Shown piece by piece: positions 1,501-61,294 of a stretch of DNA of 64,000 nucleotides. The DNA is from a virus, in UHGV virus genome UHGV-0038495, one strand, 5' to 3'. The first letter of the stretch is position 1; every line of letters starts with the position of its first letter. Under the pieces are notes generated by a model. That model did not search any database, was not told the DNA's origin, and saw only the letters and a list, made by a program, of their open reading frames with translations. The position numbers and the translations under genes are program-made.

Positions 1501-1863
1501 TTACACAAGTTTAAAGGTCGTTGTCTTGCCATCTTTTTCACGGAATAATCTTCCATCTTCTACAGCAGGTTTGATTACAGAATTTAACTTCTGACTGGTA
1601 AGTATTCCCAGCTTGTCAAATTCAGCACGATGCGCAACTAATATTTCAGTTAGTGTATTTGGAGCGTCATTAAACAGGACAAGCACCTTTTCAAGTAATT
1701 CCGTGTTTTCTTCTGTTTTCTTCTTGCTTACACTCTTGCCCTTCTTATCAAGTGCAGTAAGAATATCCTTGAGCTTGTCAATAATTTCATCTGAAACTAT
1801 TTCCTTACCTTCGATAGCCTTAATAGTAATTTCCATAGCCTTTTTCTGTGTCATCTTTTCCAT
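1501..1863 (-). CDS. Cassette protein A, copy 1 (paralog of 4490..4864), unknown function
   Basis: 120 aa. C-terminus LGILTSQKLNSVIKPAVEDGRLFREKDGKTTTFKLV is nearly identical to that of 4490..4864. Confidence 0.5.
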   Translation of the reverse strand: MEKMTQKKAMEITIKAIEGKEIVSDEIIDKLKDILTALDKKGKSVSKKKTEENTELLEKVLVLFNDAPNTLTEILVAHRAEFDKLGILTSQKLNSVIKPAVEDGRLFREKDGKTTTFKLV

Positions 1864-2551
1864 TAATTTGTCCTTTTCTCTGTTTTACCGTCTTTCTCAG
1901 CTGACTTTGTTTTGCTCCCCTTTTGTACTTATATATTAACATAGGTTTAAGGGTTTGTCAATACCTTTTTTAAACTTTTTTGAAGAGGTTTATTTGTTTT
2001 CTTTCTCTCTTGTTTGTACTATAATAATAACAAATTTTTTGCTTTTTTGCAAGCGTTTTTGAAAAATTTTGTGTATTTTTTATGTATTTTGTATACTTTT
2101 TGTTAAATTTTTAACAATCTTTGGCGCTTTAACGCATTAAAATTGTATTTTTTTATGAGATTAAAGAACATGTATATAATTTTCAGATTGCATACAATCT
2201 TTTTGCATTAAAACATGTATACAATTTCGCTTCACAAGTGAATTATTGCATATGTCAATAGTTTCGGGTGAAATAATTGTCATGCTAATAGTTTGCTTGT
2301 CCAAGCAAATAATTCACAAGTGAAGTTTCAGTTAAATCCCTCGCTGTGACGACCGTGCCCTTTGGGCGTCACAGCGAGGGCCAGTGCTCCCAAGAACATG
2401 TGTTCGTAAACGCCTGTTCATGCTCCCGGTGCTCCCGAACATTCGTTCGTTCGTGCTCCCGCTTTAGTAGAGTAAAGTATTAAAGGACTAAAGTGATGCT
2501 CCCAACACTTTACCGCAATAGAGTGATAAAGTAGTGGGAGCATTTCACTTA
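1864..2551. repeat. Repeat-rich noncoding regulatory region, copy 1 of 3 paralogous regions
   Basis: No ORF. Contains AACATGTATACAA motifs, TTCACAAGTGAA motifs at 2232 and 2316, AATAGTTTCGGG at about 2258, five or more copies of TGCTCCC, TAAAGTG repeats and a GC-rich hairpin at 2339..2379. Confidence 0.6.
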
Positions 2552-2875
2552 TTAATAGTTTAAACCTGTAACGATATTCAGCATTGCGTCAATTTGTTCG
2601 TTGTCAAGACAATCATTGTAGAAACGAATATTTATTTCATTAATTAATATTGTAACTTTTATGTTATAAATTATATCTTTTAAATCGTGAACTTTTAAAA
2701 AGTTATTAGATAACATTATAATTGTTGTGTTGTCACTGTTGTCTATAACAAATAAATCATTGTTAATGATTTCAAAATTATAATCATTGTTACCTATTGC
2801 ATTTTCAACCGCTTGTGCTATTTCATAAATGTTTAAATGTTTATTTATTTCATTAATAATATTTATATTATTCAT
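2552..2875 (-). CDS. Small acidic hypothetical protein
   Basis: 107 aa, rich in D, E and N. Positioned in the early region. Confidence 0.4.
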   Translation of the reverse strand: MNNINIINEINKHLNIYEIAQAVENAIGNNDYNFEIINNDLFVIDNSDNTTIIMLSNNFLKVHDLKDIIYNIKVTILINEINIRFYNDCLDNEQIDAMLNIVTGLNY

Positions 2876-2892
2876 TATATTTATCTCCTGTA

Positions 2893-3234
2893 TTAATCTT
2901 CAAGATTTTCTATTGTTTTAGTTATTTCTTTAAACTTATCTTCTGAAATATTGTTATTGTCAAGGAATATTTCAAAATTACGAACTAACATTTTCGCACG
3001 AATAAAGCTCATTGCATCTTCTACATTGCCGAATGTATAATCGTTATCATATTCCCAAACTATTCTTATTACATCATTAATTGAATTAATACATAAAAAT
3101 TCGTTATCCCATTCATATGCATCAACAATTGATAGTTTTTTTTCTTCACTTTCAAATATTATATTGTAATCGTCTGTGATAATATCTATTATCTTATTAA
3201 ATAATTCTTTGAGATTTTTTCTATCTATATTCAT
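2893..3234 (-). CDS. Small acidic hypothetical protein
   Basis: 113 aa with many D/E residues (EWDNEFL, WEYDNDYTF). Confidence 0.4.
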   Translation of the reverse strand: MNIDRKNLKELFNKIIDIITDDYNIIFESEEKKLSIVDAYEWDNEFLCINSINDVIRIVWEYDNDYTFGNVEDAMSFIRAKMLVRNFEIFLDNNNISEDKFKEITKTIENLED

Positions 3235-3261
3235 ATACTTTTGTCTCCATTTCTTTTATAA

Positions 3262-3290
3262 GGCGGCTTTGCTGTAGCCGCCTTATTTTC
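3262..3290. terminator. Hairpin ggcggctttgctgtagccgcc followed by a T-rich tract (putative intrinsic terminator)
   Basis: Perfect 7-bp GC stem followed by ttattttc. Lies downstream of the minus-strand exonuclease gene, between it and the next gene. Confidence 0.35.
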
Positions 3291-3318
3291 ATTAGCAATA
3301 TTTTTCTCTTATATCTTA

Positions 3319-4026
3319 TTAAAGTTCACGACGCATCTTTTTATGTGTACTAAAGCACTTTGCTAATATTTCAGTCTCGATTAAAACGTCCTCTAAACCT
3401 GTGTGACATTCTACATACATTGGATTATTTTCCATATAACGTTTTACTGTTTCCGCCTTTACTTGCGCCCGTGGTGTTTTATGTTTTGTAATGTTGCCAT
3501 GCATAAAACAAAACTGCTGATATGTTGGGCGTTTATACAATGTATCCTGTGTCATTTTCATAATATCCCAAACAGGGTAATTCTTTAATATTGGCGGAGT
3601 CCAGTATTTACCACTCAAATAATTATTAGTTCTACAAATTGCGCCTACATCAAATCTTGCATTATAGGCACAAATTGCACGTATGCCCCAGTACTCTGCC
3701 CGTTCCTGTAAATGAAAAATTAATTCAGTCCAGTTACAAACTATATGGATACCATGTTCAATATCTTCTATATAATCCGCCCGCTTATCTGCAAAATAAC
3801 ATGAACGTATACGTTCAATTTCATCATAAAAAATATCTTTTACGATGTATGAGCCAGTTTCATATATGCGCCCTTTCTTATCTGTGATTGCATATCCCAA
3901 ATCATATACAAGCATGTTTGTACCTCTAACCGCCTGTATTGATTCGTCATATGTTGCGGTTTCCGTATCAACAACCATATAATACGTACAGCGGTTATCT
4001 TTTTTTAAAATTGGATTATAAAACAT
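3319..4026 (-). CDS. DEDDh-family 3'-5' exonuclease (DnaQ/RNase T-like)
   Basis: Motif I MVVDTETA (D-x-E), motif II YNARFD, motif III H-x4-D in ECHTGLEDVLIETE. 235 aa. Confidence 0.7.
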   Translation of the reverse strand: MFYNPILKKDNRCTYYMVVDTETATYDESIQAVRGTNMLVYDLGYAITDKKGRIYETGSYIVKDIFYDEIERIRSCYFADKRADYIEDIEHGIHIVCNWTELIFHLQERAEYWGIRAICAYNARFDVGAICRTNNYLSGKYWTPPILKNYPVWDIMKMTQDTLYKRPTYQQFCFMHGNITKHKTPRAQVKAETVKRYMENNPMYVECHTGLEDVLIETEILAKCFSTHKKMRREL

Positions 4027-4034
4027 TTAATTAT

Positions 4035-4421
4035 TTACCTTTTCTTTCTTTCTTTTGCAATAGTGACGGTAAAAGTGTCACCGAAAAATTCAAATTTAAT
4101 TTTGTTAGTTGTGCGTGGCGGTCGTTCGATATTCTCAATTGAGAATTTTTTATTGAATAACTCAATTATTGAAACTAACAATTTTTCCCTATTGTCATCA
4201 ATTTTCAACTCACGCTGAACCTTTTTCCCGTTTGGTGCTACAGCTTTTACAGTTTTACGCATCTTTTTTTCAACAGCTTTCTGTTCTTCTGTAAGTTCAA
4301 ATAACTTTGCGCCCTTGTCAATCTCTGCGTCTGATTGCAATATCTCAATCGCTTCTTCTTTTGACACGTCAAGCGATTGCATCAGATTAACAATCTGTTT
4401 TTCATCGTATTTACTTCTCAA
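4035..4421 (-). CDS. Cassette protein B, copy 2 (paralog of 1067..1429)
   Basis: 128 aa. Conserved block EIDKGAKLFELTEEQKAVEKKMRKTVKAVAPNGKK. Confidence 0.5.
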   Translation of the reverse strand: MRSKYDEKQIVNLMQSLDVSKEEAIEILQSDAEIDKGAKLFELTEEQKAVEKKMRKTVKAVAPNGKKVQRELKIDDNREKLLVSIIELFNKKFSIENIERPPRTTNKIKFEFFGDTFTVTIAKERKKR

Positions 4422-4489
4422 TGTGCTTGTATCCTTTTAATAGGTGGGAGCTTTACAGCTCCCGACCTTTAAAGTGATAACGATTAAAC

Positions 4490-4864
4490 TTACTTTACAA
4501 GTCTGAATGTCGTTGTCTTGCCGTCTTTCTCTCTGAAAATACGACCATCTTCTACGGCTGGACGGATAACGGCATTTAACTTCTGACTTGTTAAAATGCC
4601 CAGTTCGTCGAACTGTTCACGGTTGGCGGTCAACAGCTCTGTCAATGTATTCGGCGCGTCTGTGAATAATGGAAGCACTTTTTCAAGTAATTCCGCATTG
4701 GCATTGCTTGCACGCTTGCTTGTGGCGTTTGCTTTCTTTTCTAACGCCGTCTTGATATCAATTAACTTTTCAAGTACTTCATTAGTGATTTTTGATGTGT
4801 CACTATTTTTGATAGCGTCAATAGCAATATTGAGTGCTTTTACCTGTGTCATCTTGTTTGTCAT
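4490..4864 (-). CDS. Cassette protein A, copy 2 (paralog of 1501..1863)
   Basis: 124 aa. LGILTSQKLNAVIRPAVEDGRIFREKDGKTTTFRLVK. Confidence 0.5.
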   Translation of the reverse strand: MTNKMTQVKALNIAIDAIKNSDTSKITNEVLEKLIDIKTALEKKANATSKRASNANAELLEKVLPLFTDAPNTLTELLTANREQFDELGILTSQKLNAVIRPAVEDGRIFREKDGKTTTFRLVK

Positions 4865-5942
4865 AATTTACCATTCCTCTCGGTTTTATAGTCTTGTTAC
4901 CTGACTTTTAAACATTTTTAAATTCTATCAAGTTCCCTTGACACTTATTATTTTAAAGCATTTAAGTAAGATTGCCAAGCACTTTTTTTCATTCTTAAGA
5001 ACTTGTCTTCATCTCCCGATGTATTCCCGTTCTCAAGAACAATTATAGTATAGACTAATGCGGGCGTAATGTCAATCAAAAATAGTATGTATATTGTATA
5101 CATGAAAGTACGGGAGCATCTTCACTTGTGAATGATCTGCTGCGGCAATTGTTCGTATGGTCAAGGTTTTCGTGCTCCGATCATTGATCCAGTCAATAGT
5201 TCACTTGTTAAATGCTCCCGGAGCACGACAAACAACTGTTCTGCATATCAGTTCGTTTTTTGCTCCATCGGGAGCATTGTATTTTGTATGTTGCATATTG
5301 TATACACGACCGGACATACCGTTGACCCTGCCAATTATTGCGCTCTTCCACTTTAATGTACTAAAGCGAAATTTAAAACATGTATACAATTCTTAAATCG
5401 TATACAATCCGCATGATTGTATATATGTTTTAAATTTCGCTTTAGTACATTAACGCTTTAGCGTAGTAAAGCGCTGAAGAGGGAGTTTATAGTTTTCACT
5501 TTAGTACACTAAAGCGTTAGTGCTTTACTATGCTAAAGTGTTTGAAGAGGTCAATAGTTTCGGGCAGCAACTATTAACAAGTTCACTATGCACTTGTTAA
5601 TTTAAAAATTGATAATTCACTTGTTAAGTAAATGCCTCGCTGTGCCGGTCAAAGGACACAACCGGCACAGCGAGGCTCACGGACCACGCTTTAAAGTGCT
5701 AAAGTGGTAAAGCGCAATTATTTCAAATGAAATTATTAACATTATCAATTATTTCACACGCAATAGAAGAAGATACTAATAGTTTCATTTGAAATAATTG
5801 ACCGCGCGAACAGTTGAATTTTGCTGCGTCGCGCGATTGTATACATGTTTTCTTTGCTCTTGTTTGTATACATGTTTAAAAAAAGATTCACATTTTAATC
5901 TTTGCTCTTGTATGGAACTAATTAAAATGTGAATCTTTAAAT
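4865..5942. repeat. Repeat-rich noncoding regulatory region, copy 2 of 3
   Basis: No ORF of 60 aa or more apart from short overlapping artefacts. TTCACTTGT(G/T)AA motifs at 5127, 5200, 5592 and 5618; AACATGTATACAA at 5376 and 5833; GCTCC/GGGAGC inverted repeats at 5209 and 5263; TAAAGCG/TAAAGTG repeats; AATAGTTTCGGG at 5552; GC hairpin at 5634..5676. Confidence 0.6.
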
Positions 5943-6191
5943 TTATTCTAATGAATAACTACAAATATTTACTTCTTCATCAATATAACATTCTTTTTCT
6001 TCTTTAGGAATAAATCTTTCTAAAATCTGCATACAACAATGGTTTTCCATAAAATCCCAATCTGATTCATTATATTCCTCTTCGTCAGTTTCCCATAATT
6101 TTAAATATCTTAATTCTTCTTTTGTCAACTCTTCAAGCGGAATTGTTATTTTTTTTGTGATTGTATATTCTAATACTAATGGTTTTTTCAT
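5943..6191 (-). CDS. Small acidic Cys-containing hypothetical protein
   Basis: 82-aa ORF immediately downstream (minus sense) of regulatory region 2. Confidence 0.35.
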   Translation of the reverse strand: MKKPLVLEYTITKKITIPLEELTKEELRYLKLWETDEEEYNESDWDFMENHCCMQILERFIPKEEKECYIDEEVNICSYSLE

Positions 6192-6213
6192 TTTTTTTTA
6201 CTCCTTTATAAAT

Positions 6214-6402
6214 CTATTTTTTAGCAAACTTCATTAATTTATTTCTTAATTTTTCATATTTGATTAATTCCTTAAGATTATCTTGTGTTTCCTTGAACTC
6301 TTTAACTAAATCCATTTTATCTTTTTTAGTTGCTATTTTAATTAATAAGTTATAATATTTTATAACTATTTTTAGTATCAAAATATTTATTTTACTTTTC
6401 AT
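6214..6402 (-). CDS. Small lysine-rich hypothetical protein
   Basis: 62-aa ORF packed between flanking genes. Confidence 0.3.
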   Translation of the reverse strand: MKSKINILILKIVIKYYNLLIKIATKKDKMDLVKEFKETQDNLKELIKYEKLRNKLMKFAKK

Positions 6403-6469
6403 TTTTAAATTCCTCCTGTTTTATTTGATAATTAATTATATCGCATTATTAAAGACTTGTCAAGTTATT

Positions 6470-6715
6470 TTATAATAATAACCCCATTAACTCACAGATT
6501 ATTTTTTCAGGTTCTGTGGTTATTCCTGCATATAATATATGCTCTTTTACTGCGTGACTGTAATATGTTACAACCAACTTATTATTTTTATATGTTACGG
6601 TCATAACCGCAGGGTTGTTAATTCCCATAATAGTTATCCTGTCGGCGCCCTCATTTACAAGAGCGCCCATCTGTATAGCTGTGATATTTAAAATTTCCAT
6701 GTTCATTTTTTTCAC
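6470..6715 (-). CDS. Hypothetical protein
   Basis: 81-aa ORF. A ggagg-like RBS precedes the start on the minus strand. Confidence 0.35.
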   Translation of the reverse strand: MKKMNMEILNITAIQMGALVNEGADRITIMGINNPAVMTVTYKNNKLVVTYYSHAVKEHILYAGITTEPEKIICELMGLLL

Positions 6716-6768
6716 CTCCTTTTACTGAGCGGCGGTTTTGCTTGCCGCCCTTAACTATCTTTATTGTA

Positions 6769-7257
6769 CTATAGGTTTATATATTTGTCAATATATTTTT
6801 TCAATTTTTCTATTAAGTTTTTTTCGTCCTCTGCATGACCGCCTTTTACAATCCAGTTAGATCTGTTTTGTTTTTCATCGTCAAATAATATGTCATTTTC
6901 TGACAATTTACCTATTGCATCGGCTTTATCTGTTCCATAAGGAACAATTATATATTTATCTATTAAATGGTAATCTAAACCATTTTTGGCTAACCATCTG
7001 ATTTTGGCGTATCTTGTTTTTCTATTGTATTCTGTTGTTCCGTGTTTTGCCGTCCAACTAATAATATTTACACTGTTAATTATTGGATTCTGTAGTAATT
7101 CTTTTAATTGTTCCATATCCACCATAGGTTTGCAAAATTCATATGGTGCGATTGATTCAAGGGTTAAATGCCTTAACCAGTCTTTATATTCGTATAGGTT
7201 GGCAATAGTGCCGTCCATATCAAAGTAGATATTTAATTTTTTCATTTTTAAAACCAT
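6769..7257 (-). CDS. HAD-superfamily 5'(3')-deoxyribonucleotidase-like phosphatase
   Basis: Motif I IYFDMDGTIAN (DxDGT). Downstream LFDDEKQN resembles the HAD motif IV acidic pair. The size of 162 aa fits the NT5C-like family. Confidence 0.65.
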   Translation of the reverse strand: MVLKMKKLNIYFDMDGTIANLYEYKDWLRHLTLESIAPYEFCKPMVDMEQLKELLQNPIINSVNIISWTAKHGTTEYNRKTRYAKIRWLAKNGLDYHLIDKYIIVPYGTDKADAIGKLSENDILFDDEKQNRSNWIVKGGHAEDEKNLIEKLKKYIDKYINL

Positions 7258-7329
7258 CCTTTTTTATTTTATTTTAACATATAAAATTATAAAATGCAAT
7301 AGTGAAATTGAATCCAGTACATGTATACA

Positions 7330-7395
7330 ATTATCAATTTAAAAAATAAAAAACTCAATTTAAAAAATAAAATAATCAATTTAAAATAAAAACAA
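7330..7395. repeat. Three tandem roughly 21-bp AT-rich direct repeats (tcaatttaaaaaataaaa)
   Basis: Copies begin near 7334, 7355 and 7376. Confidence 0.5.
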
Positions 7396-7418
7396 ATGGT
7401 CTGAAAAAATCAGACCAC
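7384..7418 (-). terminator. Intrinsic terminator for minus-strand gene 7425..7649
   Basis: Hairpin tggtctga/tcagacca with a 7-nt loop, followed on the minus strand by a U-rich tract. Confidence 0.5.
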
Positions 7419-7424
7419 TATACT

Positions 7425-7649
7425 TTAAGATAAATAACAAGTTGTATAACAACTCATTATATAATTGAGGACAAAATCGATTTTATCGTCCTCAGTTGGA
7501 GCATAAACAGTTGCGTTTATGTTCTTAAAAGTGATATTATCACCGTTAAGGACAATGATTTGTTTTAATTCATCCAAATCATATAACACATATATGTTAC
7601 CATCTGTTGTGCTGAAGCCGTTTTCTTCTAATATCATTTTTGCTGTCAT
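7425..7649 (-). CDS. Hypothetical protein
   Basis: 74-aa ORF followed by a terminator. Confidence 0.35.
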   Translation of the reverse strand: MTAKMILEENGFSTTDGNIYVLYDLDELKQIIVLNGDNITFKNINATVYAPTEDDKIDFVLNYIMSCYTTCYLS

Positions 7650-7812
7650 TGCTATTTCTCCTCTTTATGTTTTCTTGATTTAATTTATACCTTATTATAA
7701 CGTTTATTTCTAATGCTGTCAATACATTTTACGAAAAATATTATATATTTTTTTAAAGTATTTTGTATGTTGTATACACAATAGAGCATAAAAAAATAAG
7801 CGGTTTAACCGC

Positions 7813-8133
7813 TTATTCCTGTAAAGTCCATCCGATAACAATGTCATCTGTCATATTGTCAGGCGTTTCATGGTCGCTTAGTTCGACCATATATGTCTTA
7901 CCATCCTCTAATGTGGGATTGTTTATATCCCATATTTCAGAGCCGTAAAATGAGCCGCCCAACTGAGGATGTCCTGGATTGTTTGTATAATATGTACATG
8001 TTTCTGTATATGTGTTTACCTTGCTTTCTGTTGCTTTAAAGGCATAGCCTAAACCGAATGCAATAGCAACAACTAATATTAAACTAATTAACTTTTTCAT
8101 TTTTTTTAAAAACCATCCTTTACTGTTTTTCAA
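7813..8133 (-). CDS. Secreted or membrane-anchored small protein
   Basis: N-terminal KKMKKLISLILVVAIAFGLGYAF is signal-peptide-like. 106 aa. Confidence 0.45.
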   Translation of the reverse strand: MKNSKGWFLKKMKKLISLILVVAIAFGLGYAFKATESKVNTYTETCTYYTNNPGHPQLGGSFYGSEIWDINNPTLEDGKTYMVELSDHETPDNMTDDIVIGWTLQE

Positions 8134-9171
8134 TTTGTTTTAACTTATGTATGCATATTACTATAGATTTATGCATTTGTCAATACGCTTTACGCATTTA
8201 ACTTTGTTTTTATTTCAGTACATTTTATTTTAAATATTTGTTCTACGCACGTATGTTCTTTAAATACTCGTTCTAAATATTAGTTCTGAATATACGTTCT
8301 ACATATCAGTTCTTTTTATCGCATACAGCATGAACGCCTGTTCTACATATTAGTTCTTCTATTGCTTGTAACTTGAATCCAAAATCTGAATATTTGTTCT
8401 TTTTTGCCACATACACATCCATTTCATTCTTTTTATTCTGAATATTTGTTCGCCAACAGGTCTTTTTGGCTTTTTAAATCATATATTCTGCATATCAGTT
8501 CTTTTATCTGTTCTCTTTTGTTCGATTAAAGAACATACAAGCTGAATATTTGTTCTTTTTAACCACATATTTGTTTTTTTAAGAACATTGCAATAGCGAA
8601 CACATGTACACTTTACTTGTGAACTAAACACCTGTTCTCAAACACCTCTGTTCTTTTATTTTCATTCGAGAACAGGTGTTTAGTTCACAAGTAAAGTTTT
8701 GAAGAGGTTATTGAAAAGTGAAACATTTGCGGCAGCAATAATGGAACTAACTAATAATTCATTTGTGTTTTTATGCAGAGGCTAATAGTTTCGGGGTGCA
8801 ATATTTCACTTTTGCTCTATGCACTTTTCAATTAATTTTTTAATAGTTCACAATTCAATTAAATGCCGAGCCAAGACGCAACAAGTGACCAAAAAGATGC
8901 AGCGTCTTGGCTCGGGCTTCAGCACTTCACTACACTAAAGTGGTAAAGTGCAACGATTTATAATTTTCTTGCTTTAACGCGTTAAAGTACTAAACCTATT
9001 CTTGCAGAGGGCAATTACTTTAATACACTAAAGCATTAAAGTATATTCTTGTGCAGGGCAATTACTTTACCCCCTTTAATGTATTAAAGTGAACACACGT
9101 TCATTGGTTAGAATCAACTAACTAACTTGTGAAACGAACGTATGTTTGCTTAAAATAAAAAAACAAGGGCG
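8134..9171. repeat. Repeat-rich noncoding regulatory region, copy 3 of 3
   Basis: Six or more iteron-like repeats ctg(a/c)atat(t/c)(t/a)gttct between 8275 and 8575; TTCACAAGT motifs; AATAGTTTCGGGG at 8783; TAAAGTG repeats; GC hairpin at 8865..8916. Confidence 0.6.
8611..8696. repeat. Large perfect inverted repeat with 29-bp arms
   Basis: ctttacttgtgaactaaacacctgttctc at 8611..8639 pairs with gagaacaggtgtttagttcacaagtaaag at 8668..8696. Confidence 0.7.
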
Positions 9172-9534
9172 TTACGCCCTTGTTTTTATTTCGTCAAGAT
9201 ATAGATTGGAGTTATCTATATCATAGGAGTCTATTGGTGTAGACTCCCACACACATATACCGTTCACATAAACGGTGCAATTGGGAGTGTTAGCATTGCG
9301 ACGGATAAAGTCTGCCATATCTGCTAACACCTGTCCAAGCGAATAGCCGCTTGATGCCTCCATATCTGGGATTAATTCGCATGTGGTCATCCACTCATAC
9401 ATAAATGAACCACTATCACGACTATATGTGTATACATAGTCGTAACCATAAGCGCCGCCGTTGCGACACTTACTGTTATTATATTCGCTATAGTCACTTA
9501 AAGCGACAACATTAATTCTATTGTTATTTTCCAT
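9172..9534 (-). CDS. Hypothetical protein
   Basis: 120-aa ORF. A terminator-like hairpin (caagggcgttacgcccttg) lies at its 3' end on the minus strand. Confidence 0.4.
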   Translation of the reverse strand: MENNNRINVVALSDYSEYNNSKCRNGGAYGYDYVYTYSRDSGSFMYEWMTTCELIPDMEASSGYSLGQVLADMADFIRRNANTPNCTVYVNGICVWESTPIDSYDIDNSNLYLDEIKTRA

Positions 9535-10404: not shown

Positions 10405-11020
10405 TGTTTGATTGTTTATAAGTAAAATACATTTTGTGCGGTCTTATTTCACGCCGCCCCGACTTTAAAGCCTATTTCACGCGGTCGGGCGTTCCTTATT
10501 AAGTTGTCTACGGTAGTTATTTTACTACCGTTCAGGCTTATTGTCAAGCCTGTTTTTTTATTTTTTTTCTTGCGCTCGACCTTAACGCCGTTCGCACCAT
10601 TATAATAACAAACCTACAAACCAATGTCAAATATTTTTTTAGTTTTTTTTCAATTTTTTTCAGATCTGAATTTTTATTTGTTTGATGCAACTAATTAAAT
10701 ATAAAACTGATGCAATAGAAACCACATGAATATATCACATATAGGTCTGTAAGACTCAGAATTGCGTTTTAAGCAATTTTTTACGCTTATAGGTATAATG
10801 TATCAATAACACATAAAAAAACACTGTAAACGGCTTTTATACGTTTACAGTGTAGCAGGGTATATTTTAATTGTTTTATACAATAGTTGAACAGGTCAAC
10901 AATACATTTGTTATATTTTTATCAGTTAAAAACTGGATAGGGGCGGGTATATTACGGGTAAATCTTTAAATTGTGAAGCATATCGAGATTGCCTGGAAAA
11001 AAACTTTCTTAAAACTATTT

Positions 11021-11058
11021 TAAAATTAAAAGACGGAGTTGCCTTATAGGCAACTCCT
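11021..11058 (-). terminator. Intrinsic terminator for minus-strand operon 12003..11196
   Basis: Hairpin ggagttgcc/ggcaactcc followed on the minus strand by gtcttttaatttta. Confidence 0.45.
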
Positions 11059-11195
11059 CCAATCGCGAATAATCATTTCTCCTATATTCCTTCTATAATT
11101 TTCATTCTTAAAAATAAAATTTAATATTTATTTTTGATATTATTTCTTTTTTTAAATCTTCTACGTTCAAACTGGACCTCCTAAAATAAACTACT

Positions 11196-11399
11196 TTACT
11201 TGCCTAAAATTTTGTCTACACTTACATACCTATCACTTACAATATTCTGACACCCGCAATAAGGACAATCAAAAGCATCAAAAACAACTGATAACCCATC
11301 TTTACTTATCTCTCTAAGGTTTTTATTAGTAACCATATATTTATTTTCTTTAAGTAATTCAAATTCTTTTTTACATATTTTACATTTCATATATTCCAA
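11196..11399 (-). CDS. Zinc-ribbon protein
   Basis: CKICKK...CPYCGC, a pair of CxxC motifs. 67 aa. Overlaps the upstream gene by 20 nt. Confidence 0.5.
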   Translation of the reverse strand: MEYMKCKICKKEFELLKENKYMVTNKNLREISKDGLSVVFDAFDCPYCGCQNIVSDRYVSVDKILGK

Positions 11400-12003
11400 T
11401 CGTCTCCATTACCTTCTTGAAATAAGCAATCACGTACCTCCATTCCGGCAATCTATGAAATTCTCTTTGTCCTATCATTGTCTTTACCTGACCCATATTT
11501 GTTACAATCCCGGCGGTCAACTTTAATCCACTTGGCACATTATACAAAAGCGTCAAATAAGCATCTTCTTTCTCTTCCTTAGAAGCATCAGACTCCTTAA
11601 CTCTATTATACTCATCAACTAATCTTCTAACTTCTTCTTTCGTATTATCAGTAATCCACTCATTAAAAGGGTCATTCTCATCCACCAATTTTACGATCCT
11701 GTGCATAGTGCTTTGAGAACTGACTATATCCTGAAAGTGATACCTTTCCCATTCAACCCATGCCTTATTACTAAGCGTCAAATCAAACCCCAGTAAAATT
11801 CCATGCAGAAAATTATCATGCCCGCTTCCACGAGGCGCGCTTGCAAGCTTCTTTGTAATTTCCTTAATTTCATCCGTACATTTACTTACATCTGCCGCCA
11901 TAGGATACTTGGACGCGCGCACAGCATTACTCATATTATAAATGCATGCGTTGGTAATGATGCCATGCTCTTCAGGCGGTAAACTCTGATAATTATTTAT
12001 CAT
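11380..12003 (-). CDS. Hypothetical protein (possible HD-like His/Asp motif GSGHDNFLHG)
   Basis: 207-aa ORF translationally coupled to the Zn-ribbon gene. The motif assignment is speculative. Confidence 0.45.
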   Translation of the reverse strand: MINNYQSLPPEEHGIITNACIYNMSNAVRASKYPMAADVSKCTDEIKEITKKLASAPRGSGHDNFLHGILLGFDLTLSNKAWVEWERYHFQDIVSSQSTMHRIVKLVDENDPFNEWITDNTKEEVRRLVDEYNRVKESDASKEEKEDAYLTLLYNVPSGLKLTAGIVTNMGQVKTMIGQREFHRLPEWRYVIAYFKKVMETIGIYEM

Positions 12004-12203
12004 ACTCTTTCATTCCTTTCTATGTTTTAAAACAAGACGCGCCAGACTCTGACAAATTTTTATCAGAGTCTGCGCGCACCTTTTTCTTTGCTCTTGTATG
12101 TTAAAAATTAATATCTATTCATTTCTTGCGCTTTAATCATACAATAAGTTGGTAAAAATATAAATCCTAAAATTATTAATATTGCAAACATTCTCTTTCT
12201 CCT

Positions 12204-12494
12204 TTACCTTTCTTCTTTTGCTTCAAATGTTTCTTTTGCTATTGCATCTAAAAATTCTTTTGGTATTTCTATATTATATTCTTTAAAAATATCTGTTACA
12301 ATTTTATATTTATAAGATGGCGGATTCCGCTTAGAAGTTAAACATACATAATATTTACCTTCATGTTCTAAACTATAGAAGTCTAAATCCTCTCCCGCTC
12401 TTACATTTAATCTTTTTCTCATATTCTTAGGAATAGTTATTCTACCTAAATCATCAATCTTGCGGCTTGCGCTTTCATTTATTAAATTCATTTT
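12204..12494 (-). CDS. AbrB/MazE/SpoVT-family (swapped-hairpin) DNA-binding protein
   Basis: RKIDDLGRITIPKNMRKRLNVRAGEDLDF matches the AbrB N-domain signature. Start chosen at the internal Met MNLINES (RBS aaggaaagg). The ORF track offers 12572 as an alternative start. Confidence 0.65.
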   Translation of the reverse strand, partial: KMNLINESASRKIDDLGRITIPKNMRKRLNVRAGEDLDFYSLEHEGKYYVCLTSKRNPPSYKYKIVTDIFKEYNIEIPKEFLDAIAKETFEAKEER

Positions 12495-12751
12495 ATTTTT
12501 CCTTTCCTTTTGCAATAATTTTCTTAAGTGAATTGATATATTTATTATATCATAATTTTTTATATTTTCCAATTTTTCTTTGTGCTTTCTTTATATATTT
12601 ATTATATAATATTTTTTATAATTTTTATAATAGAGTTTTTGGTCTAGACCTCAACATAGTTTTTGCTTTTTTTTGTTTATAACAAAATTTTAGCATAAAT
12701 TTTTTGCATTGTCAAATTTGCTGCGGCGCATTTTTTTTTGGGCAAATACGC

Positions 12752-16685: not shown

Positions 16686-17930
16686 ACCGATGGGACTATA
16701 GAAGAGGTAGAAAAAAATAACTGCCTGTATATATCTTTACTGCTAATCCGCAGGGTCGCTATCTACTAGCGGCTAACGGGGAAGGCTGACCGTTACACAT
16801 GTATGTCAAAACATGTTTAGGCGAAGTTAATCCCGTGGGAAAATACTAATAAATATAAGTGCAAAAGGAGAAATGATGATAGGCATATACAAAGTTACTA
16901 ATAAAATTAACAATAAAGTTTATATTGGTCAAAGTATTAATATAGAAAATCGTTTTCAACAGCATAAAAATAATTGTTCAAATGAAAATTTAAAGGATTA
17001 TAATACTAAGTTTTATAGAGCTTTAAGAAAATATGGAGTTGAAAATTTTACTTTTGAAGTATTAGAAGAATTAAGTAAAGAAGAATTAAATGAACGAGAA
17101 AAATATTGGGTATCTTTTTACAATTCTTTTAAAGAAGGATATAATAGTAATGGCGGTGGAGAAAAGGTTACAGAGAGCGGAGAATTACATCCAAATGCTA
17201 AAAACTCAAACGAAACTATTATAGCATTGAAAAAAGAAATAATAGAAGGTAAATTATCTCATGCGCAGCTGGGAGAAAAATATGGAATTAGTTCTTCAGA
17301 AGTTGGCTTAATTAATTTAGGTAAACGTTGGAGCTCAGTGGGTGATTTTACTTATCCATTAAGAAAAGACCCTATTGTAAGAAAAGGCTCTCAAAATGGA
17401 CATTCTGTTTTTTCTGACGAACAAGTAATGGATATAAGAAAAAGATATGTTAATGAAAGCGGAAGAAAAATTTATGAAGATTATAAAAGCATATGTTCTT
17501 ACACAGCTTTGGAAAGAGTTCTGTTAGGTAAGACGTATACATATCTTCCAATTTATAAAAAGAAAGAGCAGCGTTGGATAAATCCAAGTAATTAATTAAT
17601 TTTTTTATTTATTAGTATAATCCTGTATCGACTATTCCGGGTTAGACTGGAAGTAGGGCTATTATTGATACATAGCTAGGTTTTAGGAAACGAAGCCTAT
17701 GAAAACCGAAAAGGATATACTCTTAGGGAGTTGACACCTCCTAGAGTAAGATATAGTCAATACCAACAGAAATGTTGGGTAAATATGAGTAGGTGTAGAT
17801 GGTACGATCCTGAATGAAGTTATAATCCCTAGATGGTGGGGCCTAGTCGCGTGAGCGATTATGGAAAAATTGCGTGAACCTAAGACAAAAGGGTGTATTA
17901 TTAAAAATAATGCTAACGGAGAAGACATCA
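16686..17930 (+). mobile_element. Group I intron 2 in terL with GIY-YIG endonuclease ORF. Boundaries approximate
   Basis: R element atcgactattcc at about 17628; S gagtaagatatagtc at 17747..17761; P9 hairpin accaacagaaatgttggg with GAAA loop. Confidence 0.5.
16873..17595 (+). CDS. GIY-YIG homing endonuclease (intron-encoded)
   Basis: N-terminus IGIYKVTNKINNKVYIGQSINIENRFQQHKNN is the GIY-YIG motif. 240 aa. RBS aaaaggag. Confidence 0.8.
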   Translation: MMIGIYKVTNKINNKVYIGQSINIENRFQQHKNNCSNENLKDYNTKFYRALRKYGVENFTFEVLEELSKEELNEREKYWVSFYNSFKEGYNSNGGGEKVTESGELHPNAKNSNETIIALKKEIIEGKLSHAQLGEKYGISSSEVGLINLGKRWSSVGDFTYPLRKDPIVRKGSQNGHSVFSDEQVMDIRKRYVNESGRKIYEDYKSICSYTALERVLLGKTYTYLPIYKKKEQRWINPSN

Positions 17931-18035: not shown

Positions 18036-19242
18036 AACTACTAGATAGTTGATGATATGATCCAATAGATGACCATGAACATTGATAGACTTGCAGGAGA
18101 TGGCAAGAGATATGAGAATGAAATGTTAAACAAGAGCCAAATTTACGTTAAATTTTTTGGGCAAAAGGTTACAAATTTATATGTTTTATTTTTATATATA
18201 TAGAAAGCATATTTTTATTTTTTAGACATAGGAGGTCTCTATATGTACTATATATATAAAATTGAAAATCAAGTTAATCACAAAATTTATATTGGTTTAA
18301 CCAATAACATTGCTCGTAGAAGAGCAAGACATTTTACAGATTTAAGATGTAATAAACATGATAACTCTTTTTTACAAAAAGAATTTAATATTTATGGAGA
18401 AGATAATTTTTCTTTTAATATTGAATTTGAAGGAGATGTAACTCCCGAGGAAATTGGTAAAAAAGAACAAGAATATATTAAAAAATATGATAGTTATAGA
18501 AATGGCTATAATCAAAATGAAGGTGGAAATTTTGGACCTAGTAATGGAGGTACTCATTTAACACAATCGGATATTTTTAATATATTATCTGCCTTAGAAT
18601 TTTGTTCTAAACCAGGAGGGGTTTTATCTGAAATGTATGATGTAAGCAGCACTACTATCTCTAGAATAAAAAAAGGAGTAAATCATAATCAATATAAAGA
18701 AGAATATGATAAGCTGCCCCTTGAAGAAAGACAGCGTATATACAAAATTTTTTGTGATAGCACCAACTTTTACAAAAACAAAATAAATACAACAATTATA
18801 AAAAGTAAGAGAAAATTAACAAAAGAACAAGTTTTTATGATTTTGGTTAATTTTGAATATAAAATTATTACACGGGTAAAAATGGCTGAAATAGTTGGTG
18901 TTTATAGCACTTATACATTAGATTGTATAAAAAAAGGATTAACTTATAAAGATTATGCATATGAATATGAACAATTAAGTAATGACCAAAAACAAGAAAT
19001 AGCGTCCTTATTGAGAAATCAATAAGAGTAAATTTTTGAATTGCTGGGAACTCCATATTGAAATGGACAATCAGCAGCTAAGTCTTTTATATTAATAAAA
19101 GAAAAGTCCAACGACTATAATAAGTACATGCAAGCGCATGGAAGCGGAAATCCCCTTTGTGAGGGTGAAGATATAGTCTATTCTATATAGTAATATATAG
19201 CAGTTCATAAGAGAACGTATGTAAAGTAGCGATTTACATAGA
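18036..19242 (+). mobile_element. Group I intron 3 in terL with GIY-YIG endonuclease ORF. Boundaries approximate
   Basis: P element aattgctgggaa at about 19035; Q aatcagcag at about 19068; R ccaacgactat at about 19098; S gaagatatagtc at 19167..19178; P9 hairpin ctatatagtaatatatag; 3' hairpin tgtaaagtagcgatttaca as in intron 1. Confidence 0.55.
18243..19025 (+). CDS. GIY-YIG homing endonuclease (intron-encoded)
   Basis: YYIYKIENQVNHKIYIGLTNNIARRRARH is the GIY-YIG motif. 260 aa. RBS ataggaggt. Confidence 0.8.
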   Translation: MYYIYKIENQVNHKIYIGLTNNIARRRARHFTDLRCNKHDNSFLQKEFNIYGEDNFSFNIEFEGDVTPEEIGKKEQEYIKKYDSYRNGYNQNEGGNFGPSNGGTHLTQSDIFNILSALEFCSKPGGVLSEMYDVSSTTISRIKKGVNHNQYKEEYDKLPLEERQRIYKIFCDSTNFYKNKINTTIIKSKRKLTKEQVFMILVNFEYKIITRVKMAEIVGVYSTYTLDCIKKGLTYKDYAYEYEQLSNDQKQEIASLLRNQ

Positions 19243-53734: not shown

Positions 53735-54205
53735 TTACAGTTTCATTATAAAACAAAGAGCATAATAAGGCGGCATATTGTTGTGGGAATTTCCTTTACC
53801 GACGGTAGAAGTAGTAGTATCACCAGACATACTACCAGCTTCTAAGCCTGGTAATGTTTTTGCAGAACCGGCATAGCGTGAGGCATATTCTAGGGATATT
53901 CCATTCGTTCCACTTCTATAATCACTATATTGAATTATATCGTGCGTATGATTACCAATATCATGGCTATGACTAGGCATTTGCGCAATAGTAAGAGTAA
54001 CTTCTTTTTCACCACCTGTTGCGCCTACAGTATAATTTTTACCTGCGCCTAATACAAATTTATCTCTTAGATCCGGAGTATTATTACTTCCATTACATAG
54101 CGCCCATCCATTTGGTATATTAGAACTAGAACCAGACCACATACAGATTAGACCCGTGGGGATTGAGCCACCATCGCCTTGACCTAATAAAATACCTGTA
54201 CTCAT
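53735..54205 (-). CDS. RBP-like paralog 2 with phage tail-collar domain
   Basis: MSTGILLGQGDGG... then IPNGWALCNGSN...TPDLRDKFVLGAG matches the tail-collar (MdpB-like) domain. 156 aa. Confidence 0.65.
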   Translation of the reverse strand: MSTGILLGQGDGGSIPTGLICMWSGSSSNIPNGWALCNGSNNTPDLRDKFVLGAGKNYTVGATGGEKEVTLTIAQMPSHSHDIGNHTHDIIQYSDYRSGTNGISLEYASRYAGSAKTLPGLEAGSMSGDTTTSTVGKGNSHNNMPPYYALCFIMKL

Positions 54206-57611: not shown

Positions 57612-58355
57612 ATGTCTGAGAAAAAATTTTATGTATATAAATGGTTTAATACTTCTACAGGAGAAGTCTTTTATATCGGCAAAGGATGCGGAAAAAGATT
57701 TCAAGTTACAAAAAAAAGAAATCAAAAATTTCTTGATTACATATCAGAAAATCCTGTTAGTAGTGAAATCATAGAGTCTAATTTAACAGAGGAAGAAAGT
57801 TTTCAAAAAGAAAAAGAATGGTATGATTATTATAAATCTTTAAATCAATGTTCTTGTAATCTTATGGAACCTGGAACAGGAGGATTAAGTTTTGTATGGA
57901 CAGAAGAAATGAAAACTTACTGGTCTAAAAATAACCCTATGAAAAAAGAAGAACAACGTCAACGAATGAAAGAAAATAATCCTATGAAAAATCCAGAAAC
58001 CGCTTTAAAAAATGGTGCGGCTCACAAAAGAGCTGTTATTATTGGGGATAAAACTTTTGATAGTTTAAAAGAAGCAGGATTATTCTTTAATGTAAGTCCA
58101 GTGACAATTGGTAGTTGGTGTAAAAACGGAATTAGTTCAAAGGGAGAAAAATGCTCTTATGCAGATGGGAAAGGAGCTAAAAAATGCAAGAACAAAGGAA
58201 TTCCTGTTTTAATAGATGACGTTTATTATCCATCAATAGCGGACGCTGCAGCTCACTTAGATGTTTCCGCTTCTGCCATTAAATTAAGTTTAAAAAATAA
58301 TAAACCTACTAAAAATCATATTTGTAAATATGCTAATCAGCAGCCTAGCCAATGA
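57612..58355 (+). CDS. GIY-YIG homing endonuclease with NUMOD-like DNA-binding repeats
   Basis: FYVYKWFNTSTGEVFYIGKGCGKRF is the GIY-YIG motif. Repeated NNPMKK...NNPMKN motifs. Confidence 0.75.
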   Translation: MSEKKFYVYKWFNTSTGEVFYIGKGCGKRFQVTKKRNQKFLDYISENPVSSEIIESNLTEEESFQKEKEWYDYYKSLNQCSCNLMEPGTGGLSFVWTEEMKTYWSKNNPMKKEEQRQRMKENNPMKNPETALKNGAAHKRAVIIGDKTFDSLKEAGLFFNVSPVTIGSWCKNGISSKGEKCSYADGKGAKKCKNKGIPVLIDDVYYPSIADAAAHLDVSASAIKLSLKNNKPTKNHICKYANQQPSQ

Positions 58356-60673: not shown

Positions 60674-61294
60674 TTATAATAATTTGTCCAAATCAGCACC
60701 ATATTTTTTTGGGTCTTTTAACATATTACGCAAAGTGCTATAACAGTAACCATCGGCAAACTGCAAAAGCGCAGTAATTGGATAGCCTTCTTTCCAAAGA
60801 TTATAAATCATTGGAAAGTTTTCTGGGAGTTTTTTAGTTGGACGCCCAAATGCTACTCCTTTTTCTTTCGCTATTGCAATACCCTCAGCTTGACGCTGTT
60901 TGATAAATTTGCGCTCTTGTTCAGCACTAAAAAATAAGACGTTTACTATAAGATTATTAATAAATATTCCCATTTCTCCAAGTTCATGATTAGTATTAAG
61001 AAAAGGTGTATCAATTACTTTTATTTGGATATGGCGTTTTTGAATTAGCTCTGACCACATTTGCAGCGCTTCCTCGTAATGGCGCGAGAGTCTGTCTAAA
61101 GATTTTATAACTAGAGTATCACCCTCTTTAATTACCTTCATGAGTTTTTGATAAGATGGACGGTTAAAATCTTTGCCTGAAGCCTTATCACTAAATACAT
61201 GATCTTCAGTCACTCCCGCATCAGATAGAGCTTTTAATTGCCTGTCTAATTTCTGTTCGTGACTACTTACTCTTGCATACCCATAGATTTCCAT
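60674..61294 (-). CDS. Small serine recombinase (Hin/Gin/resolvase family, likely DNA invertase)
   Basis: YGYARVSSHEQKLDRQ carries the catalytic Ser, and GDTLVIKSLDRLSR is also conserved. Small size with a C-terminal HTH segment. 206 aa. Confidence 0.8.
   Translation of the reverse strand: MEIYGYARVSSHEQKLDRQLKALSDAGVTEDHVFSDKASGKDFNRPSYQKLMKVIKEGDTLVIKSLDRLSRHYEEALQMWSELIQKRHIQIKVIDTPFLNTNHELGEMGIFINNLIVNVLFFSAEQERKFIKQRQAEGIAIAKEKGVAFGRPTKKLPENFPMIYNLWKEGYPITALLQFADGYCYSTLRNMLKDPKKYGADLDKLL

Follow-up and report, generated by a model that had tools for sequence, protein, structure and literature searches.

Three conserved, repeat-rich noncoding regions in the early arm of a gut siphovirus: possible multi-operator control regions

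The 64,000-nt stretch of the UHGV virus genome UHGV-0038495 analyzed here (the window; one strand, 5′ to 3′) carries three repeat-rich noncoding regions, R1, R2, and R3, which together make up 4.4% of its length. They form a real family of noncoding elements, statistically solid and conserved in evolution. Repeat-rich, cis-acting regions in the early arms of phages are a known kind of element, and no described one was found to be homologous in sequence. We tentatively read them, with a probability of about 0.4, as multi-operator cis-acting control regions of three early transcription units. All genes from position 1 to ~12.6 kb lie on the minus strand, are small, and nearly all lack an assigned function, while near-perfect TTGACA-17-TATAAT sites precede many of them; judging by these traits, this stretch is a leftward early arm of the host-takeover type. 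The three regions, with the minus strand as gene sense, are as follows.

1864–2551, minus strand: R1, putative noncoding control region upstream of the cassette 1 genes 1501–1863 and 1067–1429; no open reading frame (ORF)
4865–5942, minus strand: R2, putative noncoding control region upstream of the cassette 2 genes 4490–4864, 4035–4421, and 3319–4026
8134–9171, minus strand: R3, putative noncoding control region upstream of the gene 7813–8133, which encodes 106 amino acids (aa)

None of the regions contains an ORF under any stop-codon usage. The longest open frame with standard stops spans 86 codons and is broken by a 7-nt indel in a relative, and reading any one stop codon as sense extends the longest frame to at most 155 codons. 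Hidden coding or recoding, which had to be considered given that the relative phAss-1 recodes TAG, is ruled out by the lack of a long frame under any two-stop code. The earlier statement that the regions hold no credible ORFs is thus borne out under the standard code and all two-stop codes. The late genes are readable normally with the standard code.

The original prediction staked itself on motif enrichment beyond the level of shuffled sequence and on colinearity of the three regions. On the first point it is confirmed: five families of words are concentrated in R1–R3, namely the CTTTA-N6-TAAAG dyad, TTCACWWGTGAA, TGTATACA, TGCTCCC, and GTTCT, and an unbiased k-mer enrichment returns the same five (GGGAGCA, CACTTTA/CGCTTTA, GTATACA, TTCAC(W)(W)GT, and TGTTCT; p 1e-9 to 1e-16). 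The commonest word, described earlier as repeated TAAAGTG/TAAAGCG, does accumulate there (21 of the 38 TAAAGYG copies in 4.4% of the window) and has a sharper form in CTTTA-N6-TAAAG, a 16-bp true dyad with fixed N6 spacing. Its nine exact copies all lie within R1–R3, and 25 matches with at most one mismatch are found against 8.7 expected. The palindrome TTCACWWGTGAA is present in three exact and four one-mismatch copies, all in R1–R3 (0.87 expected; none of 100 shuffles reaches seven); the claim of at least eight copies of TTCAC(A/T)(A/T)GTGAA in the three regions therefore holds for enrichment and confinement, but the count is seven. Exact AACATGTATACAA sites number four (2212, 5377, 5837, 5864), accompanied by three with one mismatch (2167, 5417, 7318) and two with two mismatches in R1/R2. 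The window total is 10 matches, nine of them within 2.0–7.4 kb, and 5094 is also listed as a site, in agreement with the at least six occurrences of a palindromic-core motif reported for R1, R2, and position 7318. Allowing two mismatches, 10 of the 12 CTGMATATNNGTTCT matches fall in R3 (nine) or R2 (one), all on the plus strand (4.7 expected), which supports the at least six ctg(a/c)atatNNgttct copies described for R3. Similarly, TGCTCCC has 10 of its 11 window copies in R1/R2 (2.75 expected), where TGCTCCC/GGGAGCA repeats had been noted. The arrays are composed as follows (strand given where assigned).

5349–5540: five CTTTA-N6-TAAAG dyads of R2 (5351, 5440, 5456, 5499, 5523), overlapping the palindrome 5353–5453, which has 38-nt arms and two TGTATACA sites inside
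5687–5714: CTTTA-N6-TAAAG-N3-TAAAG unit beside the R2 hairpin; also at 8923–8950 (R3) and 2460–2495 (R1)
8970–9091: three exact dyads of R3 (8972, 9018, 9074), in a ~56-nt tandem module with GCAG(A)GGGCAATTACTTTA
2385–2542: TGCTCCC/GGGAGCA cluster of R1, six copies, with GAAC/GTTC words and dyads
5112–5276: TGCTCC/GGAGCA dyads of R2, with TTCACTTGTGAA (5121) and TTCACTTGTTAA (5200)
8230–8556, plus strand: NNATATNNGTTCT array of R3, ~9 same-orientation units, six in tandem at 13–15 bp and the others 43–54 bp apart
8610–8697: inverted repeat of R3 with 33-nt arms, containing TTCACAAGT and AGAACAGGTG words
5837–5876, minus strand: two exact AACATGTATACAA sites just downstream of the terminator at the upstream end of R2

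Two smaller repeats were also observed. Three tandem 21-bp units, ATCAATTTAAAAAATAAAAAA, occupy 7333–7397 between the TGTATACAA site at 7318 and a bidirectional terminator-like hairpin (7395–7419). The 12-mer CTTTGCTCTTGT (minus strand, ACAAGAGCAAAG) has three plus-strand copies (5852–5863, 5900–5911, 12086–12097): directly after a AACATGTATACAA site in R2, in the loop of the upstream terminator of R2, and upstream of the gene 11380–12003. It may represent a conserved leader or start-site sequence.

The regions are held together by a collinear core of ~155 nt. An nhmmer profile built from its three copies finds exactly these three in 64 kb, all in direct orientation, and on related contigs it finds three positionally orthologous copies in each sufficiently long one. 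Colinearity, the second stake of the original prediction, holds for this core only (nhmmer E 1e-37 to 1e-41) and not outside it. Likewise, the proposed paralogy applies to the core and to the promoter/leader parts of R1 and R2, but not to the regions as wholes: beyond the core R1, R2, and R3 diverge and have words, but not their order, in common. The box said to be shared by all three regions is confirmed as AATAGTTTCGGG, with one exact copy in each (2257, 5553, 8784), none elsewhere in 64 kb, and none in shuffles.

2241–2393: core copy 1 (nhmmer E 5e-38), with the AATAGTTTCGGG box, TTCAC palindromes, TAAAT, and the GC hairpin
5537–5688: core copy 2 (nhmmer E 1e-41)
8769–8924: core copy 3 (nhmmer E 1e-37)
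2338–2380: GC-rich hairpin/palindrome of R1, 14-bp outer stem, loop inverted relative to the R2 hairpin
5634–5676: GC-rich hairpin of R2, 16-bp stem, 11-nt loop, followed on the minus strand by ATTTACTT
8866–8915: GC-rich hairpin of R3, 14-bp stem unrelated in sequence to R1/R2, 22-nt loop

Read in gene sense, the end of the preceding unit is followed by dyads including CTTTA-N6-TAAAG-N3-TAAAG, the GC hairpin, ATTTA, the TTCAC palindromes, the CCCGAAACTATT box, and finally the promoters. R1 starts directly after the gene 2552–2875, and R2 and R3 start with the canonical terminator of the preceding unit. After the core, R2 continues with further dyads in its 38-nt-arm palindrome, TGTATACA sites, and the TGCTCC/GGAGCA dyads, and R3 with its 33-nt-arm palindrome and then the same-orientation NNATATNNGTTCT array.

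The GC-rich hairpin had been proposed for every region, and it is found in each, with a DNA folding energy of −18.6 to −23.2 kcal/mol (z −5.2 to −8.2). Among 12 distinct R1/R2-type hairpin sequences, pairing is kept in 97.9% of cells and six of 16 pairs have changed on both sides; these hairpins score 0.267 for covariation and shuffles 0.084, and none of 500 shuffles reaches the observed value. The R3 stem has the same shape as the R1/R2 hairpins despite its unrelated sequence. Moreover, the R1 hairpin is the R2 hairpin turned over, and in one related contig (L010) reverse-complementing the R2-type hairpin yields that of R1, so that the sequence and orientation of the loop appear irrelevant. 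On the minus strand the hairpins are followed by ATTTAACT (R1), ATTTACTT (R2, flagged by the terminator scan), and ATTTAATT (R3), each with three consecutive U, and beside them the plus strand has no T-run. Of the rare non-Watson–Crick pairs, one is compatible with G·U on the minus strand and another on the plus strand; in hairpins and dyads alike, such pairs are few and point both ways as to the strand of a putative RNA. Either selection or correction by template switching may maintain the palindrome, which may act at the DNA or the RNA level. Several hairpin-based identities were discarded: the stems of 14–16 bp are too long for a mimic of a clustered regularly interspaced short palindromic repeat (CRISPR), the positional orthology of the copies in all genomes argues against a mobile miniature inverted-repeat transposable element, and an N4-type hairpin promoter was dropped given that the 2926-aa protein of the window is a tape-measure protein (PF10145) and not a virion RNA polymerase.

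Conservation sets the regions apart from their surroundings. The distal parts of R1, R2, and R3 share 92–97% nucleotide identity with related genomes (five compared; 77–93% in the most divergent, L001), whereas the flanking genes are 72–92% identical and the 124-aa gene directly downstream of R2 71–81% in the same comparison. Among 11 distinct R2 sequences, the words and long intervening stretches are invariant, and the variable positions are found in the hairpin stem and loop, the dyad spacers, and the promoter-proximal part. Gene content around the regions varies among relatives, and the regions stay in place. As the most conserved sequence of the early arm, they are likely to mark the least changeable step of early infection. 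The original prediction lacked three features altogether: the σA-type promoters, a conservation above that of neighboring genes, and the compensatory change and loop inversion of the hairpin.

The words themselves behave unlike paired RNA. Across genomes the half-sites of the dyads are conserved and their spacers vary; at the pair that would extend the dyad (n = 12), three cases are Watson–Crick, five are G·T on the plus strand, three are G·T on the minus strand, and one is a mismatch, while one orthologue has two mismatches in the would-be 7-bp stem. RNAalifold on 15 cores returns no helix but the GC hairpin. In Rfam, the only window match at the gathering threshold is a group I intron at 18986–19200, and a permissive search of 1800–9300 gave sub-threshold microRNA/small RNA hairpin matches only; a known RNA family was therefore rejected for R1–R3. 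Of the several covarying helices expected of a structured noncoding RNA, the GC hairpin alone is supported, which falls short of such an RNA. Because the dyad flanks do not covary, no helix but the hairpin is conserved, and Rfam is empty for these regions, the words appear to act as double-stranded DNA sites and not as RNA.

Each region ends, on its gene-proximal side, in one or two near-consensus σA-type promoters on the minus strand, which are kept in relatives.

5882–5938, minus strand: intrinsic terminator of the unit preceding R2, 18-bp stem followed by T7
9159–9187, minus strand: intrinsic terminator of the unit preceding R3, from the terminator scan
5047–5075, minus strand: R2 promoter P1, TTGACA-17-TATACT, with the GTTCTTGAGAAC palindrome (5029–5040) at about +1
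4950–4978, minus strand: R2 promoter P2, TTGGCA-17-TAAAAT (TTGACA in relatives), with the GTTCTTAAGAA palindrome (4992–5002) just upstream
1933–1961, minus strand: predicted R1 promoter, TTGACA-17-TAATAT with TG, by consensus match
2021–2052, minus strand: predicted second R1 promoter, TTGCAA-17-TATTAT, by consensus match
8155–8183, minus strand: predicted R3 promoter, TTGACA-17-TAATAT, by consensus match

GTTCTT-N2-AAGAAC-type palindromes thus lie on or beside both promoters of the R2 cassette, and their half-site is iterated in R3. By position, GTTCTTGAGAAC and GTTCTTAAGAA at P1 and P2 are the most operator-like sites found. In addition, at least four early promoters have a TGTATACA site 55–90 bp upstream, in two cases outside R1–R3 (7318, 7764–7781). 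Short words are, in sum, significantly repeated in intergenic promoter regions of one genome, as in known operator arrays.

R1 and R2 each precede a gene for a ~120-aa protein and a partner gene of ~120–128 codons, which suggests where candidate binders may be sought.

4490–4864, minus strand: putative winged-helix protein of cassette 2, 124 aa, with a 64% identical paralogue at 1501–1863; candidate array binder
4035–4421, minus strand: partner protein, 128 aa, with a 54% identical paralogue at 1067–1429; no recognizable fold
3319–4026, minus strand: DEDD-type exonuclease-like protein, 235 aa (phrog_20187, 2e-35); linkage to the winged-helix gene also in distant relatives

The family of the 124-aa protein comprises 54 clusters at 50% identity. 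Winged-helix matches to the C-terminal half of this protein are weak but consistent (F-93 WHD, MCM_C, Mnd1, Penicillinase_R, TrmB, AspA, AdcR), and the AlphaFold model, with a helix-helix-helix-strand-strand topology, is of low confidence and too poor to search (predicted local distance difference test, pLDDT, 55). Searches of the cassette proteins against Pfam, PHROGs, and the PDB sequences returned nothing above threshold, and the partner protein model (pLDDT 76) has no Foldseek match with E < 1 in the PDB. The partner paralogue 1067–1429 shows a sub-threshold match to the ParB-family profile PF08775 (E 0.02; 15.7 bits against a cutoff of 25). Candidate binders include the winged-helix proteins 4490–4864 and 1501–1863, and the AbrB-like protein 12204–12572 is one of several. 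The earlier proposal of binding arrays for a dimeric regulator gains from the fixed N6 spacing of the dyad, its conserved half-sites and non-covarying flanks, the palindromes at the R2 promoters, and the winged-helix family; the binders it named, the AbrB-like protein and the cassette proteins, are still candidates. A deoxyribonucleotidase-like ORF (phrog_2643, 5e-9) was also observed at 6769–7257 on the minus strand.

The reading as control regions is favored because promoter adjacency, operator-like palindromes, the behavior of the dyads, and the linked family of putative DNA-binding proteins fit together. From the observed anatomy, enrichment, conservation, and covariation we infer protein binding, the binders, the direction of regulation, and the role of the hairpin as follows. 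The dyads and direct words would be bound, as double-stranded DNA, by several phage-encoded and mostly dimeric regulators, among the likeliest being the duplicated winged-helix proteins, whose genes directly follow R1 and R2, so that autoregulation would result. Jointly, these regulators would determine how strongly early transcription runs and when it is shut off, with the near-consensus σA-type promoters at the region ends driving the downstream genes. The GC hairpin would insulate the units from one another, whether by weakly terminating transcription on the sense strand or as a palindrome prone to cruciform formation, and would also be a recombination-prone site. The closest described system in proposed mechanism is that of the SPβ repressor MrpR, which binds the SPBRE word in ten intergenic promoter regions (PMC10516654). 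Both are cases of short words, here TGTATACA and the dyad words, repeated in many intergenic promoter regions of a Firmicutes siphovirus of ~135 kb. The analogy is limited, however, by the single 15-bp word per promoter in SPβ as opposed to five families, an ordered 155-bp core, and a hairpin here, and no MrpR-like protein (tyrosine-recombinase fold) is seen in the window.

Several observations weigh against control of transcription as the whole explanation. The 450–800 bp of almost invariant sequence far exceed what a set of operators usually needs, and operator function leaves the fixed order of the core and the selected hairpin unexplained. Most dyads and TTCAC palindromes lie 100–700 bp upstream of the promoters and not over them. 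On the sense strand, the tract that follows the R1 and R3 hairpins has no more than three U, and R2 and R3 already have a canonical terminator upstream. The binder is only a candidate, given the low-confidence model of the 124-aa protein (pLDDT 55) and a partner without recognizable fold. Finally, half of the R1 core is lost in L005, L006, and L009, which makes that copy dispensable, barring assembly error.

Among the alternatives, replication origins, which the earlier prediction raised in the form of iterons, are a serious though unlikely possibility. The arrays would be initiator sites, the AT-rich stretches and the hairpin would serve unwinding and priming, and early transcription would activate up to three related origins, as in SPP1 (oriL/oriR) or T4. 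SPP1 oriL/oriR and the ori regions of lactococcal and S. thermophilus phages are indeed conserved, ORF-free, and rich in repeats and palindromes, and SPP1 carries at least two related ones. In R1–R3, AT-rich tracts and a structure-prone GC hairpin do come together with direct repeats and long palindromes, in noncoding sequence conserved above the flanking genes and adjoined by genes of DNA metabolism (the winged-helix protein, the DEDD exonuclease, the deoxyribonucleotidase-like protein). On the other hand, the DnaA box TTATCCACA is not enriched (21 found with at most one mismatch, 19.75 expected), with a single instance in R1–R3 (TTAACCACA, 8559), and Pfam and PHROGs reveal no adjacent Rep, helicase, or primase gene in the window. 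The R3 units of 13–15 bp, irregularly spaced at 43–54 bp, are not helically phased, and at least three direct repeats of 17–22 bp in phase, as iterons require, are absent. Three origins within 7 kb would be unusual, and the GC skew turns at ~12 kb and not at R1–R3. With respect to the Firmicutes phage origins, the differences thus comprise the lack of an adjacent initiator, helicase, or primase gene and of DnaA-box enrichment, three copies in 7 kb, and promoters for unrelated small genes at the ends. A role in DNA handling is a less probable reading, either as an equivalent of the repeat regions for first-step transfer of T5 DNA (injection stop or anchoring) or as dispersed centromere/operator sites of the KorB-OB, N15, or pSM19035-ω type with a spreading protein. 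The centromere version could draw on the weak ParB-family match (PF08775, E 0.02) of the partner paralogue 1067–1429 and on the TTCAC-WW-GTGAA word, which we take to resemble a chromosomal parS half-site. However, the ParB match is below threshold, and neither a ParA nor a ParB N-terminal domain is found among the window ORFs scanned. The KorB OB sites of RK2, the ω heptads upstream of three pSM19035 promoters, and the dispersed SopB sites of N15 are short words, direct or inverted, in several promoter regions, bound by a small dimeric protein. Short palindromic or repeated words in several promoter regions of one replicon are likewise found here, but no ParA/ParB or ribbon-helix-helix protein is identified, and a partition role would need a plasmid state. 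In form, the closest described analogue is the set of untranslated repeat regions 1–3 of T5, including its injection stop signal (iss). The pre-early DNA of T5 has three such regions with a common 131-bp module, far better conserved than the surrounding ORFs, and they adjoin dmp (5′-deoxyribonucleotidase), A1, and the small DNA-binding protein A2 (bioRxiv 10.1101/866236). In both phages, siphoviruses of more than 120 kb in T5 and here, three ORF-free stretches of ~0.2–1.2 kb lie in the earliest-expressed arm. R1–R3 share a 155-bp module and, being untranslated, repeat-rich, and conserved above the flanking ORFs among relatives, display traits of the T5 type; the adjoining deoxyribonucleotidase-like ORF, exonuclease-like ORF, and small winged-helix proteins recall dmp/A1/A2. 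Nevertheless, there is no sequence similarity, the pairs of DnaA boxes are present in T5 only, the module is direct here and inverted in T5, and the host here is Gram-positive. The contig ends are assembly breaks at a palindrome and give no position relative to physical ends, and the function of the T5 regions is itself unproven.

That the distal parts act as RNA elements, either as small RNAs or long leaders (e.g., processive-antitermination RNAs that take RNA polymerase past the many early terminators) or with the hairpin as an RNase III site or 3′-end stabilizer, is similarly improbable. The hairpin pairing kept through compensatory changes, the near-uniform conservation over hundreds of bases typical of structured RNA, and the room for a separate short transcript left in R2 and R3 by a terminator ~250 nt upstream of the hairpin would be in line with such a role, and TATACA/TACAAT within the AACATGTATACAA(T) sites may serve as −10 elements. 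The absence of an Rfam family, of a second helix in RNAalifold on 15 cores, and of covariation in the dyad flanks, with one orthologue carrying two mismatches in the 7-bp stem, argues otherwise, as do wobble pairs that are few and favor the plus strand in places and the minus strand in others, and a loop that is inverted between R1 and R2. Moreover, template switching can yield compensatory change in a DNA palindrome without selection on RNA. It is more improbable still that R1–R3 are recombination linkers with no other dedicated function, i.e., boundary sequences from cassette duplication kept similar by homologous exchange between phages and between copies. Regions that stay put amid variable gene content would suit this, as would an R2/R3 hybrid core in L023, an inversion junction exactly in the hairpin of L012, and the R1 hairpin of L010, identical to the R2-type hairpin in reverse complement. 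Yet each orthologue clusters with those at its own position (R1 with R1, etc.), which speaks against concerted homogenization of the copies, and spacers and stem pairs vary while the words do not, a patterned variation that indicates selection on the words; distant relatives, furthermore, have analogous layouts with unrelated words. A bolder proposal, which we regard as unlikely but worth stating, is that the hairpin and the word arrays form a DNA-structure element (a cruciform plus a nucleoprotein array) common to many large siphoviruses of Firmicutes, the phages of gut Clostridia and the cultured Enterococcus phages EF1/VRE9 among them, and that this element, jointly with the linked winged-helix/partner/exonuclease cassette, carries out a DNA-level step of early infection rather than ordinary promoter control. 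If this were true, staged or anchored DNA entry of the T5 iss kind, multi-site replication initiation, or the protection and organization of the incoming genome end would come into view.

Distant relatives share a layout of terminator, GC hairpin, lineage-specific words, σA promoters, and winged-helix cassette (L017, L038, and VRE9_1). In L017, whose winged-helix protein is 39% identical, a terminator is followed by the GC hairpin CGCCTCGC..GCGAGGCG, four 11-bp CTGTAAC repeats over a promoter, a second promoter, and the winged-helix and partner genes. L038 has two noncoding stretches that adjoin the exonuclease, winged-helix, and partner genes and in which GC hairpins flanked by TGGAAA/TTTCCA words precede the promoters. 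The cultured Enterococcus phage VRE9_1 encodes two exonuclease paralogues; the gene before one of them (L040:8529–8918) matches the winged-helix family (hhalign 97.6%), and the gene before the other (2847–3281) has a near-identical start region. Its word TGTTATTTT occurs 17 times in an 18.7-kb locus (1.5 expected), 16 of these in two stretches with spurious micro-ORFs only, which also carry TTGTGAA/TTCACAA palindromes. In one stretch, six minus-strand TGTTATTTT copies are followed by a GC hairpin, ATTTTAC, and four plus-strand copies; this dyad layout, typical of bidirectional origins, speaks for the origin alternative. Since the layout is present in cultured Enterococcus phages, its function is directly testable. 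Some phages of the VRE9 series were isolated on vancomycin-resistant E. faecium, and the regions would open a way into early-gene regulation, or into the biology of origins or DNA entry, in a phage group considered for therapy. A perfect 111-bp tandem duplication was also noticed in a repeat-rich noncoding stretch of VRE9_1 (L040 6802–7023; PP680567), where the deposited record has several PHANOTATE ORFs of 30–70 codons with scores near zero, which are probably not genes.

Rearrangements in related contigs concern the same sequences. In L012 (Logan SRR25571835, an 83.8-kb contig), cassette 2 is followed by distal R1, the hairpin, and distal R2 in reverse, so that the 3.3 kb separating the R2 and R1 hairpins is inverted and the two parts overlap by 41 nt precisely at the hairpin (junction 3196–3236, against 2339–2379 and 5635–5675 of the window). 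This arrangement, one of 35 hairpin instances, may be a real variant or an assembly chimera. The hybrid core of L023 (~3789–3884) joins an R2-type 5′ part to an R3-type TTCAC box and hairpin and may reflect an R3/R2 deletion or recombination, or a chimeric contig. The contigs L003 and L012 begin in the palindrome 5353–5453, on the upstream side of the 124-aa gene and 520 and 523 nt away from it, which corresponds to ~5384–5387 of the window. These ends were rejected as physical genome ends, as the center of the 38-nt-arm palindrome minus about half a k-mer marks an assembly break. The regions also account for the breaks and chimeras that recur when metagenomic contigs of these phages are assembled.

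The window is a portion of a large siphovirus genome, about half of which lies outside it. Its genes include those for the portal, the 2926-aa tape-measure protein (PF10145), tail-fiber proteins, a holin, a sigma-factor-like protein, and a YonG_N protein; genes for tRNA and tmRNA are absent from the window. The portal shares 40% identity with its counterpart in the human-gut phage phAss-1 and 34% with those in the Enterococcus phages EF1/VRE9, and metagenomic contigs of 131–142 kb carry proteins identical or near-identical to those of the window. We take the phage to be an uncultured siphovirus of gut Clostridia, ~135–140 kb in size and common in the human gut. The clade is frequent in human-gut metagenomes, with 227 member sequences in one protein cluster and identical proteins on dozens of contigs, and its early arm is almost entirely without known function. 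When GTDB genomes were scanned for the core, one phage contig was returned, binned into a Clostridium metagenome-assembled genome. Among deposited phages there was neither a DNA match nor one to the 124-aa protein. When IMG/VR and JGI metagenomes were scanned by pattern for divergent cores, close relatives alone were returned, and two protein-seeded scans for divergent core copies found nothing. The turning point of the cumulative GC skew at ~12 kb coincides with the divergence of transcription.

Some further features of the window were observed in passing. A fourth ORF-free stretch of 791 nt (10405–11195) carries two promoters of consensus type, at 10630 and 10547, together with separate GC hairpins (e.g., 10456–10490), and contains neither a core copy nor exact dyads. 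The group I intron at 18986–19200 on the plus strand (Rfam RF00028, 101.9 bits) precedes the portal gene; GIY-YIG endonuclease-like ORFs lie nearby (16873–17595 and 18243–19025), and a homing-endonuclease-like ORF is found at 57612–58355. A serine DNA invertase of 206 aa (60674–61294, minus strand; PF00239, 3e-30; phrog_125) adjoins the holin gene. The arms of a 34-nt inverted repeat (54937–54970/62689–62722; 82% complementary) are 7.7 kb apart, and each starts at an ATG encoding MSVNGILLGQ or MAVNGILLGQ. C-terminal tail-fiber fragments lie on the opposite strand, and 53735–54205 on the minus strand was noted along with these features. The invertase and the inverted repeat probably define an invertible tail-fiber segment that determines host range.

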